IMG/VR virus record: IMGVR_UViG_2521172733_000017
Direction: 5' to 3' (one strand)
Origin: a virus
Lineage: Duplodnaviria; Heunggongvirae; Uroviricota; Caudoviricetes
DNA length: 18,058 nt
Positions within the stretch are counted from its first letter, which is position 1. Each line of letters opens with the position of its first letter. Both the position numbers and the translations under genes were made by a program. Positions 14,305-17,358 of this stretch are shown here, in pieces. Under the pieces are notes generated by a model, which worked only from the letters and a program-made list of their open reading frames with translations, did no database searches and was not told where the DNA came from.

Positions 14305-15413
14305 ATGACCGACACCACCATGCAATTGCTCAGCCAGGGCACTTACCCCGTGAAAATGCCGGATTTTGATATTCTCGCCGAGGGTAAAACGCTGTCCGGC
14401 GTGGCAGACCGCCTGATGAACCTGTCACTGACCGACAACCGGGGATTTGAGGCGGACCAGCTCACCATCACGCTGGATGATGCGGATGGTCAGTTGCAGC
14501 TACCGCCACGGGGCGCGCGCCTGACGGTTCTCATTGGCTGGAAAGGAGAACCGCTGACAGAAAAAGGCACTTACATTGTTGATGAAATCGCTCACGAAGG
14601 ACCGCCGGACAGGCTGACTGTTTCAGCCAGAAGCGCAGATTTTCGGGATGAATTTAACGTTAAACGTGAGGTGTCCTGGCATGATGTGACCGTTGAGCGC
14701 GTGGTATCTGCCATCGCTCATCGGTACGGTCTGAAACCGCAAATCAGCGAAATGCTGATGGATATCGAAATCGACCACGCCGACCAGACCGAAGAAAGCG
14801 ATATGTCCTTCCTTACGCGCATGGCGGAAATGCTGGGCGCAATCACCACGGTAAAAAGCGGCAATCTGTTATTCATCATGCCAGGTGGTGGCGTGAACGC
14901 ACAGGGCCAGCCGTTGCCCTCGTTCGCCATTACACGCAGCAGCGGCGATCGCCATCAGTTCCGTATTGCTGACCGCGAGGCGTATACGGGGGTACGCGCC
15001 TACTGGCTTGATCTTAATTACGGGAAAAAGAAAAAGTCAGCGTGAAACGCCGTAAACCACCAAAACCCAAAAAGGAGAAAAGCAGCAGCCGTGAAGGTGA
15101 TTATATGGAAGGCGCGGAAGGCAATGTGTTTGTGTTACGCAAGACTTATCAGAACGAGCAGGCAGCAAGACGCGCAGCGGCGGCAAAGTGGCAGCAGCTA
15201 CAACGCGGAGCCGCATCATTCTCCATCACGCTGGCATGTGGTCGTGCAGAACTCTACCCCGAAATGCATGGCACGGTAACAGGATTTAAAAGCGAGATTG
15301 ATAATCAGGACTGGATTATTGCAAAAGCCGAGCACACCATCGATAACAGCGGCTTTACCACGCAGCTTGAGCTTGAGGCAAAAATCTCGGAATGGATAGC
15401 AGAAACAGAGTGA
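14305..15413 (+). pseudogene. D: Tail protein D (P2 gpD, late control D family) split by a frameshift in an A-rich tract (segments 14305-15045 and 15042-15413)
   Basis: N-terminal segment carries LSLTDNRGFEADQL and SWHD motifs of gpD; the C-terminal part continues in the -1 frame (...GAASFSITLACGRAELYPE..., SGFTT) after the Lys-rich linker; frame break at gggaaaaagaaaaag (15022-15036); RBS GGGAGGG before ATG 14305. Confidence 0.75.
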
Positions 15414-15716: not shown

Positions 15717-15725
15717 CAGGCAGAA

Positions 15726-15754
15726 TTGCCGGAGTAACAAAAAAGCGATAGATT
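15726..15754 (+). promoter_or_regulatory. Candidate sigma70 promoter (TTGCCG, 17-bp spacer, TAGATT) for the hok-like transcript
   Basis: Good -35/-10 hexamers with 17-bp spacing about 150 nt upstream of the hok-like ORF; predicted transcript to the terminator at about 16168 would be roughly 400 nt, typical of hok mRNAs. Confidence 0.4.
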
Positions 15755-15907
15755 ACGCGCGGGTGCCTTTCGGCTGATGGTCGGAGGGAATACCCGAAGG
15801 CCAGATGTGGAAAGGCCCCGGAAAACATTTCTGTTTAACCGAGGCCCTAACATATCTACCTTAAGCAAGTGATAGGTTAGCGCCTCTCCAACAAAGGAGC
15901 AAGCGCT

Positions 15908-16048
15908 ATGTCGCAAAAATCGCTTACGGCCATCACGTTCTGCGTGACGGTAATCCTCATCATCTGGATGCTACACGGTTCGCTGTGTGAAATACGGATG
16001 AGCTTCTGGGGAGCGGAGTTTGCGGCGTTCTTACAGTGTAAGCAGTAA
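15908..16048 (+). CDS. Hok/Gef-family type I toxin-antitoxin toxin (small membrane peptide), HokA-like
   Basis: 46-aa ORF below the track's size cutoff: MSQKSLTAITFCVTVILIIWMLHGSLCEIRMSFWGAEFAAFLQCKQ; hydrophobic transmembrane helix followed by the SLCEIR...E-AAFL-C motif of Hok-family toxins (compare HokA ...DSLCELHIKQESYELAAFLACKLKE as recalled); AGGAG RBS 8 nt upstream. Confidence 0.65.
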   Translation: MSQKSLTAITFCVTVILIIWMLHGSLCEIRMSFWGAEFAAFLQCKQ

Positions 16049-16136
16049 GGAAACCGCGACGGGGGAGCAATCCCCCGTCAATCGGTTGCTAAGGTTGGCT
16101 GAAGTGGCACCCTATCTCACAGACATGAACAACAAA

Positions 16137-16168
16137 CCCGCAGCGTAAGAACTGCGGGTTTTCTTTTT
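16137..16168 (+). terminator. Rho-independent terminator (CCCGCAG-loop-CTGCGGG then TTTTCTTTTT) ending the hok-like transcript
   Basis: 7-bp GC-rich stem, 8-nt loop and T-rich tail on the + strand; an additional perfect 9-bp hairpin (GACGGGGGA-GCAA-TCCCCCGTC) lies at 16058-16079. Confidence 0.6.
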
Positions 16169-16251
16169 GGAACTATCACTAGCTAGTGTACCGTTAACGG
16201 CACATAATGCTCGCACAACAAACCTGTTAAAAGAGATTACTCAGCATTCTC

Positions 16252-16518
16252 CTACTTCCATTGCCGGATCATTTCATCGGTAACATCACCCTCATAACAT
16301 ACCACGTCATACCCTCCATTACGGCTATATGCACTGCGTCCACCACATCTACTACCATTCCTTGCATGATTATAAGGACACGCACAATTGCCTGGATAAG
16401 ATTCAATGGATTCTTTAATTATTTCTTTTTTGATCTGAGCATCAGACTTTCCTGTTGCTGCATATCCGCTAAAAGATACTAAACAAAGGCAGATTGCCAT
16501 TAATAAACCACATCGCAT
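16252..16518 (-). CDS. Small secreted Cys-containing protein of unknown function (orphan gene in an AT-rich islet)
   Basis: Starting at the internal ATG (16516-16518) gives 88 aa with a signal-peptide-like N-terminus MRCGLLMAICLCLVSFSGYAATG and a mature part with 4 Cys (CACPY...RCGGRSAYSRNGGYDVVCYEG); the track's 38-residue upstream extension is unlikely to be translated. Confidence 0.5.
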   Translation of the reverse strand: MRCGLLMAICLCLVSFSGYAATGKSDAQIKKEIIKESIESYPGNCACPYNHARNGSRCGGRSAYSRNGGYDVVCYEGDVTDEMIRQWK

Positions 16519-16736
16519 ACCGATACACTCTATTACTAACCAATCATAGTCCACATCATAAAATCGAGATGAGGAGTACAATACCTTTAACAAGAAGGTG
16601 TCATAACGATAATATGTCGTGCAATTCATCAAAAAAAAGATCTATATCAAAGAGATAGAACTCTTATCAGTGCTTCAGACATCGGCATTCGAGGCAGCAG
16701 AAAAACAGTAAATCTGACGAATTTGCCTTTTCCCAA

Positions 16737-16904
16737 GATGTTGTCAGATTAAAAAGATAGATTAGCGCAGGTACCTGTTGGTGGATTGCAGGAGGAAAAA
16801 TGAAGTCGAGTGGAAAAATCCCAGAAAAATTTTTGTTTAACAGAGGTCCTGGTTCACTATGCGAAATACGGAGGAGCTGCAGAAGAATTCTGCTTCATCC
16901 TTAG
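16737..16904 (+). pseudogene. Decayed paralogous copy of the hok-like locus (promoter-like region, leader and fused 34-codon ORF retaining ...GSLCEIR...)
   Basis: Segments homologous to 15726-15760, 15805-15850 and 15977-16005 of the intact locus are present in the same order but with an internal deletion of about 120-130 bp that removes the Hok transmembrane region; a GGAGG RBS precedes ATG 16800. Confidence 0.5.
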
Positions 16905-16985: not shown

Positions 16986-17013
16986 ATACAAAAAAACCAC
17001 CCGAAGGTGGTTT
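16986..17013 (-). terminator. Rho-independent terminator downstream of tRNA-Leu (stem CCACC/GGTGG, then a T-run on the - strand)
   Basis: On the - strand: GAAACCACCTTCGGGTGGTTTTTTTGTATTT, a hairpin followed by 7-8 T residues, about 45 nt 3' of the tRNA-Leu end. Confidence 0.7.
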
Positions 17014-17056
17014 CACGACACTGCTTATTGCTTTGATTTTATTCTTATCTTTCCCA

Positions 17057-17143
17057 TGGTACCCGGAGCGGGACTTGAACCCGCACAGCGCGAACGCCGA
17101 GGGATTTTAAATCCCTTGTGTCTACCGATTCCACCATCCGGGC
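17057..17143 (-). tRNA. leuZ: tRNA-Leu (anticodon UAA), 87 nt with long variable arm
   Basis: Reverse complement matches E. coli leuZ as recalled (GCCCGGATGGTGGAATCGGTAGACACAAGGGATTTAAAATCCC...GGGTTCAAGTCCCGCTCCGGGTACCA); encoded CCA end. Confidence 0.9.
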
Positions 17144-17155
17144 TCGGGAAGAAAG

Positions 17156-17229
17156 TGGAGGCGCGTTCCGGAGTCGAACCGGACTAGACGGATTTGCAAT
17201 CCGCTACATAACCGCTTTGTTAACGCGCC
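17156..17229 (-). tRNA. cysT: tRNA-Cys (anticodon GCA), 74 nt
   Basis: Reverse complement reads GGCGCGTTAACAAAGCGGTTATGTAGCGGATTGCAAATCCGTCTAGTCCGGTTCGACTCCGGAACGCGCCTCCA; anticodon loop TTGCAAA; encoded CCA. Confidence 0.9.
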
Positions 17230-17282
17230 AAATTCTTCAGGCCTTTCAGCCAGACATCCGCTGACGCCGATGTCTTTTAAAC

Positions 17283-17358
<76 letters not shown>

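Follow-up and report, generated by a model that had tools for sequence, protein, structure and literature searches.

What does a small, AT-rich open reading frame (ORF) do near the right end of an integrated phage genome, where it runs against the direction of its phage neighbours and is annotated as nothing but 'hypothetical protein'? This question is raised by positions 16252-16518 of the IMG/VR virus record IMGVR_UViG_2521172733_000017 (Caudoviricetes), a stretch of 18,058 nucleotides that was analysed at its full length and is referred to below as the window. A first-pass annotation, made from the letters alone, had placed here an orphan gene for a small secreted, cysteine-containing protein. 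By its conservation and substitution patterns the ORF is a genuine gene; it is carried as prophage accessory cargo, and its product belongs to a large, unnamed domain family. What this domain binds can be approached through its fusion partners and gene neighbours, and our tentative reading, to which we assign a probability of roughly 0.35-0.4, is that it represents an extracytoplasmic nucleic-acid-binding module.

The gene and its probably exported product

The gene and the two parts of its product are located as follows.

16252-16518, minus strand: coding sequence (CDS) of an 88-amino-acid protein, with ATG at 16516-16518 and TAG at 16252-16254
16459-16518, minus strand: predicted Sec signal peptide (residues 1-20, MRCGLLMAICLCLVSFSGYA), in which a heuristic places the cleavage site after GYA
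16255-16458, minus strand: mature domain of 68 amino acids, consisting of a helix, a cationic Cys-loop and a C-terminal helix (alignments A1/A3, AlphaFold2 (AF2) model)

The gene call is based on the ORF list and the sequence itself, the RefSeq call in strain 15A, homologues and the ratio of non-synonymous to synonymous substitutions (dN/dS). The minus-strand frame starting at 16516-16518 was recovered as first annotated, with the 88 residues exactly as quoted there. In the O111:H21 strain 15A, which is 100% identical, RefSeq with its pipeline PGAP calls the same CDS ('hypothetical protein' WP_071779570.1), and in strains 55989, O157 and H3 it calls a 93-amino-acid allele (WP_001303543.1 in 55989 and O157). 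This difference in length is due to a CAG-to-TAG change at codon 89 (16252-16254) of the window allele, by which the last five residues of the other strains' alleles (QENAE) are lost. Among the loci compared, this stop is common only to the window and the identical 15A, with the other alleles ending ...QWKQENAE; the lost tail is non-conserved and lies outside the conserved domain in the family alignment. Five synonymous and three non-synonymous differences separate the E. coli allele from its 92%-identical counterpart in H3 (dN/dS about 0.15), and in comparison with the Salmonella homologue dS is saturated and dN is 0.35. Judged by these substitutions, selection on the ORF within E. coli is purifying. 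The AT-richness that had been visible by eye was confirmed by measurement, with a GC content of 40.4% for the ORF and 40.0% for the cargo segment 16170-16987 versus 52.2% for the window, and codon usage deviates in the same direction (GC at third codon positions (GC3) of 27% versus about 60-63% for gpD and pgsA).

Two other readings of this DNA were rejected. A 126-amino-acid frame with a TTG start (to 16632) is an over-extension, which is not conserved beyond E. coli and gathers non-synonymous changes, and which is also ruled out by PGAP and the homologues, both of which start at the ATG. A plus-strand antisense ORF of 73 amino acids (16261-16482) overlaps the target gene, and ORFs like it formed a cluster in 24 of the 80 homologous loci; all of these were judged to be artefacts that mirror conservation of the coding strand.

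That the N-terminus resembles a signal peptide was borne out by a hydrophobicity heuristic combined with sequence inspection (rather than SignalP). MRCGLLMAICLCLVSFSGYA has the n/h/c layout of such peptides, with one basic residue, a nine-residue hydrophobic core at residues 6-14 (Kyte-Doolittle 3.2) and the small residues G and A at positions -3 and -1 of the predicted cleavage site, which is followed by A. Inspection gave no match to the lipobox [LVI][ASTVI][GAS]C, as neither Cys10 (M-A-I-C) nor Cys12 (I-C-L-C) fits this pattern. A comparable hydrophobic segment is present at the N-terminus of 176 of the 195 single-domain family members, and these N-termini, together with the extracytoplasmic nature of the fusion partners described below, support export. 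We therefore infer that the protein is probably exported to the periplasm.

The four cysteines seen in the mature part by the first-pass annotation turned out to be invariant across the family (alignments A1 and A3). They pin a loop rich in glycine and arginine, the Cys-loop, with the motif C-x-C-P-Y-N...G..C-G-x-R-S-A-Y-S-R-x-G-G...C-Y..D-V, which is preceded by an amphipathic helix (S-I-x-x-Y-x-G), and the window protein has every column that is invariant in these alignments. In the oxidising periplasm, where disulfides are expected to form via the DsbA pathway, the four cysteines most likely form two disulfides. With the family alignment as input, AF2 models the mature part at a pLDDT of 91 and a pTM of 0.75, predicting a helix (5-19), an irregular loop that contains a beta-bridge (residues 30/36) and, at R-S-A, a 3-10 turn, then a short turn and a second helix (60-66). 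Of 257 domains, 96% have a Cys-loop with a net charge of +2 or more (mean +3.7), with basic residues conserved at 98-99% at two positions, and the flanking helices are neutral to acidic.

A large and unnamed domain family

The gene is anything but an orphan. A word-indexed search yielded 235 homologues of about 90-110 amino acids from Salmonella, Oxalobacter, Pseudomonas and many metagenomes, all of which combine a hydrophobic N-terminus with the core ...SDAQIKxxIIxESIxSYPGNC[PA]CPYNxARNGSRCGGRSAYSRxGGYxPxCYxxDVTxxM..., in which S37, Y41, G43, C45, C47, P48, G55, C58, G59, R61, S62, A63, G69 and C74 are invariant. An exhaustive hidden Markov model (HMM) search of 1.84 billion representatives extended the family to 2,308 clusters at E<=1e-3 (1,473 at E<=1e-10; clusters at 50% identity), and scanning GTDB species representatives with a pattern turned up a homologue in 321 genomes. 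Among phage protein clusters, phrog_27544 (PHROGs v4, 'unknown function') matches residues 13-88 with E=2.9e-54, and weaker matches to the core motif are found in phrog_14503 ('membrane associated protein', moron category; E=5e-7) and phrog_3117 (E=2e-6). The window protein is thus one member of a family, phrog_27544 included, that shares the motif CxCP[YF]...G..CGxRSA[YW]...GG...C[YF]..D[VI]. From the 321-genome scan, the pattern of which was taken from the narrower alignment A5, 80 loci were kept, and all neighbourhood counts given here refer to these. They come from Alpha-, Beta- and Gammaproteobacteria, Geobacteraceae, Acidobacteriota and metagenome-assembled genomes (MAGs) of Cyanobacteria/Gastranaerophilales; the family is large, unnamed and here almost entirely confined to diderm, i.e. 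outer-membrane-bearing, lineages.

The earlier statement that the product could not be assigned to a characterised family stands. Pfam gave only a sub-threshold match to Sclerostin (PF05463; 18.2 bits versus a cut-off of 27, E=0.002), which was dismissed as a chance match of a Cys/Gly/Arg-rich segment; an NCBIfam scan of the 88-amino-acid protein returned nothing, and PADLOC was likewise empty. Literature searches with the RefSeq accessions of the protein and on Excalibur, YHYH and thermonuclease found nothing relevant.

Fusion partners and gene neighbours

Domain architectures were compared for the 150 best representatives, 46 of which have at least 160 amino acids. Among these 46 long members, SH3_3 is present in 15, typically in the order transmembrane segment or signal peptide, SH3b, linker, domain, and SH3_4 in seven. 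PG_binding_1 and PG_binding_2 occur in four and two, respectively, in the order signal peptide, domain, PG_binding. Nucleases are represented by SNase in three long members (P0127, P0175 and P0247), with the domain on either side, and by a GmrSD_C/HNH nuclease in one (P0249); TonB_C and CBS are found once each. Six proteins contain two copies of the domain, with tandem duplications in, for instance, P0121, P0122, P0124 and P0141, and some members feature YHYH-like or Excalibur-like motifs, such as a DINNNGVACE stretch in P0188.

Neighbour clustering over the 80 loci revealed no universal neighbour or operon partner. The nearby presence of GGDEF/EAL and SRAP genes was considered incidental, and the contexts are often mobile elements (MobA/MobL, P4 cII, holins, DUF4224). 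In six loci from six lineages, a gene for an Endonuclease_NS nuclease of the Serratia/Anabaena NucA type lies at a distance of 5 kb or less. Four of these six genes directly adjoin the domain gene on the same strand, and one encodes a fusion of S1-P1 and Endonuclease_NS. SNase-like neighbours in two further loci bring Endonuclease_NS or SNase adjacency to 8 of 80, and in a Pseudomonas locus a gene combining SNase and Excalibur is found 1.8 kb from the domain gene. By a rough estimate, which was not computed, chance would be expected to produce such nuclease adjacency in far less than one locus.

A second small secreted protein of about 90-110 amino acids, with the motif GYxRxDGTYVxPHxRSxxN...NPYTG and no Pfam match, is encoded beside the domain gene in 11 of the 80 loci (L028, L030, L040, L042, L054, L058, L064, L076, L077, L089 and L100), which belong to Xanthomonas, sphingomonads and Geobacteraceae. 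Its gene directly adjoins the domain gene in ten of them and is about 450 bp off in L100, and the two may represent a two-gene cassette.

Proposed nucleic-acid binding and competing explanations

A size of about 65 amino acids, tandem duplication and promiscuous fusion point to a binding module rather than an enzyme. The nucleases with which the domain is associated represent at least three folds that are structurally unrelated, which suggests that what these proteins have in common is a ligand, i.e. the substrate, rather than a fold-specific partner or inhibitor, and the conserved cationic loop fits a polyanion, which is why we favour nucleic-acid binding. The loop would then bind a polyanion, most probably nucleic acid; the SH3b and PG_binding fusions would be wall-anchored DNA receptors, the nuclease fusions would have the domain as a substrate-binding accessory, and the free form would act as a soluble periplasmic DNA receptor that is ComEA-like in role, but not in fold. 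In a lysogen, the protein could bind DNA that reaches the periplasm, e.g. incoming phage or other foreign DNA, or extracellular DNA (eDNA), and candidate gains for the prophage would be exclusion of incoming DNA, effects on eDNA and biofilms, or modification of the envelope. The complete scenario—a four-Cys domain of about 65 amino acids with an undescribed fold that serves as the nucleic-acid module of secreted nucleases and wall-anchored proteins in diderms, and of which, in pathogenic E. coli and Salmonella, P2-like prophages carry a free periplasmic copy that intercepts DNA, either for excluding superinfecting phage or foreign DNA or for capturing eDNA—is speculative, and we consider it unlikely.

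A number of observations speak against this interpretation. Wall-binding partners (SH3_3 in 15 and PG_binding_1/2 in 6 of the 46 long members) outnumber nucleases (4 of 46) five to one, nuclease adjacency is limited to about 10% of the loci, and in E. coli the gene is not accompanied by a nuclease gene. Pfam and PDB fold searches revealed no recognisable DNA-binding fold or motif and no structural neighbour, leaving a fold without a visible solved relative. Its cationic loop notwithstanding, the mature E. coli protein as a whole is weakly basic at best, with a pI of 7.9 for the 88-amino-acid and 5.8 for the 93-amino-acid allele. The PADLOC-DB v2 defence HMMs gave 0 families at E<=1, and tblastn of the mature domain against the isolated phages in INPHARED detected no homologue. 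At the level of expression, a promoter scan found no sigma-70 consensus on the minus strand upstream of the ORF, and its Shine-Dalgarno (SD) sequence is weak (AGAG about 10 nucleotides upstream).

The predominance of wall-binding partners makes an envelope or peptidoglycan ligand the main rival. The domain would then bind peptidoglycan, lipopolysaccharide (LPS) or an envelope protein and thereby localise nucleases as well as SH3b and PG_binding proteins, and the free periplasmic copy of the phage would occupy or mask an envelope site, for instance blocking the passage of a superinfecting phage or modifying the wall. The commonest partners (SH3_3, SH3_4, PG_binding_1, PG_binding_2 and TonB_C in 15, 7, 4, 2 and 1 of 46) are what one would expect in this case, all fusion partners are extracytoplasmic and a cationic loop would suit anionic envelope polymers just as well. 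Yet a protein consisting of two wall-binding modules and no catalytic domain (TM-SH3b-domain) is harder to rationalise than an anchor joined to a cargo-binding domain, the adjacency of separate Endonuclease_NS or SNase genes in 8 of the 80 loci is left unexplained, and PDB fold searches showed no likeness to a known peptidoglycan-binding fold, so that we regard this alternative as doubtful, albeit one to be taken seriously. Clearly more improbable is a metal-binding module, in which CxC...C...C would coordinate Zn2+ or another cation in a structural or cofactor-supplying role analogous to that of Excalibur. The SNase, HNH, Endonuclease_NS and S1/P1 families are metal-dependent, which includes all nucleases associated with the domain; four invariant cysteines could provide a binding site, and the architectures parallel those of Excalibur (SNase and GmrSD_C fusions, the Excalibur-like DINNNGVACE in P0188). 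However, four cysteines in an oxidising periplasm are expected to be present as disulfides, the CxC spacing is not that of a classical Zn knuckle, no cluster of His, Asp or Glu is conserved (conservation among polar residues concerns Arg, Ser, Tyr and Asn), and a metal ligand would not account for the SH3b and PG_binding fusions.

Two further readings were considered. The protein, which by the predictions made here is small, exported and rich in disulfides and would expose a rigid, conserved loop, calls to mind canonical-loop protease inhibitors, with C-G-x-R-S-A as a P1-Arg loop that would shield the lysogen from trypsin-like proteases, or else other bioactive disulfide-rich peptides of an antimicrobial or toxin-like kind. 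The loop may resemble Bowman-Birk or Kunitz loops, and the Arg position is now and then taken by K, H or L in divergent members. Nevertheless, this Arg is 98% conserved, unlike the hypervariable P1 residues of inhibitor families, neither sequence nor structure matches any inhibitor family, and fusion to nucleases, which argues against an inhibitor role, is as unexpected as fusion to wall-binding domains, all of which makes such a peptide a very improbable solution. Finally, the ORF could be spurious or decaying; the AT-rich DNA between the intact hok locus and the degraded one would then be non-coding junk, and the ORF would have no function in E. coli. The premature stop at codon 89, frameshifted or truncated alleles elsewhere (P0032, P0017) and partial matches (H60-H63), the lack of a consensus promoter in the scan and a prophage that looks defective because of its frameshifted gpD would all be compatible with decay. 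But the domain-coding part is intact, the lost tail lies beyond the conserved domain, synonymous differences prevail over non-synonymous ones against the H3 allele (5 versus 3), and the family is conserved across phyla; decay thus is scarcely credible.

The prophage setting

The window is part of an E. coli chromosome and contains, from left to right, P2-like prophage tail genes, gpD, ogr (to 15716), hok, the target ORF, a hok-like remnant, the leuZ-cysT-glyW tRNA genes and pgsA. The features around the target ORF, which runs opposite to the flanking phage genes ogr and hok, are the following.

15908-16048, plus strand: intact hok, Hok/Gef family, 46 amino acids (ORF list; RefSeq WP_000078920.1)
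16134-16161, no strand assigned: G+C-rich hairpin between the convergent hok and target ORF (terminator scan)
16237-16251, minus strand: former C-terminal codons ENAE and TAA, untranslated after the codon-89 change (comparison with the 93-amino-acid alleles of 55989, O157 SS17 and H3)
16519-16716, minus strand: AT-rich upstream region, expected to hold promoter and ribosome-binding site (sequence, promoter scan)
16717-16860, plus strand: remnant of a second hok locus, leader/mok region only (pairwise alignment, about 70% identical to 15717-15865)
16988-17111, no strand assigned: attR core, a 124-bp repeat that forms the right prophage boundary (blastn of the 55989 attL and the K-12 empty site against the window)
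17057-17358, minus strand: leuZ-cysT-glyW tRNA genes (tRNA positions)

The boundary follows from two comparisons. In strain 55989, the attL copy at the yecA-integrase junction is identical over 124 bp to window positions 16988-17111, and the empty site of K-12 (yecA, 3'ETS-leuZ, leuZ) aligns to the window only from 16988 rightwards. This identifies 16988-17111 as the attR core and all DNA to its left, with hok, the target ORF and the remnant of the second hok locus, as belonging to the prophage. The core spans the entire 3'ETS-leuZ, a small RNA (sRNA) sponge, as well as the 3' 55 nucleotides of tRNA-Leu; depending on the crossover point within it, all or part of the copy joined to the functional leuZ comes from attP of the phage. 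The ORF had been placed next to a prophage end, and it is indeed close to one (470 bp), but it sits inside the prophage, to the left of the attR core at 16988. The prophage is P2-like (Peduoviridae) and integrated into the 3' end of leuZ, with the ORF in the slot between ogr and attP.

The location 'between the hok copies' holds for one side only, on which hok is intact, whereas on the other side only a leader remnant without a hok CDS is found. A match to Rfam sok (RF01794) at the intact locus (15761-15918) scores 47.9 bits, below the gathering score of 59; at 16717-16860, the hok CDS is lost and no Rfam sok match was obtained. At the corresponding prophage end in Salmonella, two intact hok genes are arranged in tandem (L013 6713-6853 and 7211-7351), and the homologue of the target gene is located beside the tRNA. 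The hairpin at 16134-16161 has a T-run that is good on the plus strand and poor on the minus strand, and is a possible shared terminator of hok and the target ORF.

A search of 5,426 complete E. coli genomes located the segment 16170-16980 in 618 of them. In all four genomes inspected (55989, 15A, O157 SS17 and H3) it lies beside leuZ with P2-like tail genes, an identical layout occurs in a 35-kb metagenome contig, and the equivalent prophage end in Salmonella contains a homologue with 61-68% identity. In a megablast search of INPHARED phages, only the hok terminator was matched. Phage P88, a Peduoviridae isolate, has hok and the hok terminator in common with the window, up to about 16168, and then continues with an unrelated ORF of 81 amino acids (minus strand, L004 2806-3048, starting MYTYKMIQVPPNISVKAKD...), and an unrelated ORF in the same slot is the mark of exchangeable moron cargo. 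The classification as moron or accessory cargo has thus been corroborated by a position inside the prophage, opposite orientation, atypical GC content and replacement in P88. In related prophages, a Thoeris-like pair (SIR2 and TIR/ThsB) is found between gpD and ogr (L006 1957-3872, L007 2095-4010); as this pair is missing from the window and from 55989, two adjacent variable cargo slots flank ogr. In O157:H7 SS17 (L005 2172-4685), IS30-like and IS3-family insertions have removed ogr and hok at the prophage end, and the target ORF is still intact beside leuZ.

Further to the left in the window, gpD (14305-15413) is split into two overlapping ORFs, one to 15045 and the other at 15042-15413. Compared with the intact 369-amino-acid gpD of a metagenome contig (L007), there is a frameshift near 15026-15031, where one nucleotide is deleted in an A-run (AAAAAGAAAAAAG to AAAAAG-AAAAAG), and RefSeq lists the same truncated gpD of 267 amino acids in 55989 and 15A. 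With gpD truncated in this way, the prophage may be defective. A literature search on the leuZ P2-like prophage and CP-933T found nothing relevant.

Significance

A leuZ-integrated P2-like prophage with this gene is found in about 11% of complete E. coli genomes, including O157:H7, O111 and the enteroaggregative strain 55989, and a homologue is located at the same site in Salmonella. As such, the gene is ordinary prophage cargo, in kind a P2-family moron. What is new is the domain, i.e. a family of more than 2,300 clusters (at 50% identity) that has neither a Pfam or NCBIfam model nor a structural neighbour in the PDB, that is widespread and undescribed, and that is recurrently coupled to at least three unrelated folds of secreted nucleases and to cell-wall-binding modules. 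Defining the ligand would provide an annotation for thousands of proteins and account for an accessory module found in extracellular nucleases, and the phage copy could turn out to be a new kind of prophage cargo that acts in the periplasm. If the domain proved to be a generic envelope-binding module only, the outcome would be a routine moron annotation.

Comparison with known systems

The closest relatives in sequence are found in phrog_27544, of which the window protein is a direct member. However, this cluster as well as phrog_14503 and phrog_3117 are unannotated, with no described function, structure or domain definition, and the bacterial family is far larger than its phage subset.

P2-family phages are known for moron or lysogenic-conversion genes such as old, tin and fun(Z). 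The gene described here resembles these, as well as the cargo of the P2 defence hotspot (Rousset et al. 2022, PMC9122126), in being a variable, non-essential and compositionally atypical gene of a P2-like prophage, and in having Thoeris in the neighbouring gpD-ogr slot of related prophages. It differs by its position in the ogr-to-attP slot, by having no PADLOC match to defence proteins and by encoding a single small exported protein instead of a cytoplasmic nuclease/NTPase system. Rousset et al. (2022) do not mention ogr, hok or attP, and the terms ogr, hok and 'attachment site' are all absent from the text of a 2026 hotspot paper in Nucleic Acids Research (NAR).

With respect to a plausible class of roles, the protein may be likened to envelope proteins that mediate superinfection exclusion, i.e. 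small, phage-encoded proteins exported to the host envelope, such as Sp and Imm of T4, Llp of T5 and Cor of phi80. Llp and Cor are lipoproteins, whereas the window protein lacks a lipobox, and the likeness would be one of role.

Excalibur (PF05901) is an extracellular Ca2+-binding module of secreted nucleases. Both Excalibur and the domain described here are small, contain cysteines and occur outside the cytoplasm, either as single modules or in fusions with SNase and HNH-type (GmrSD_C/DUF1524) nucleases, so that their architectural niche is the same. The window protein, however, has no DxDxDGxxCE motif and no Pfam match to Excalibur at E<=1, and its domain differs in length, in having four cysteines instead of two and in having a cationic rather than an acidic loop.

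ComEA is a periplasmic or membrane-anchored DNA receptor in competence, which in streptococci partners with EndA, a nuclease of the Endonuclease_NS family. The window protein has neither a helix-hairpin-helix (HHH; no HHH Pfam match) nor any similarity to ComEA in sequence or fold. The analogy would be a purely functional one, in that both may represent small exported nucleic-acid binders that exist in stand-alone, membrane- or wall-anchored and nuclease-associated versions.

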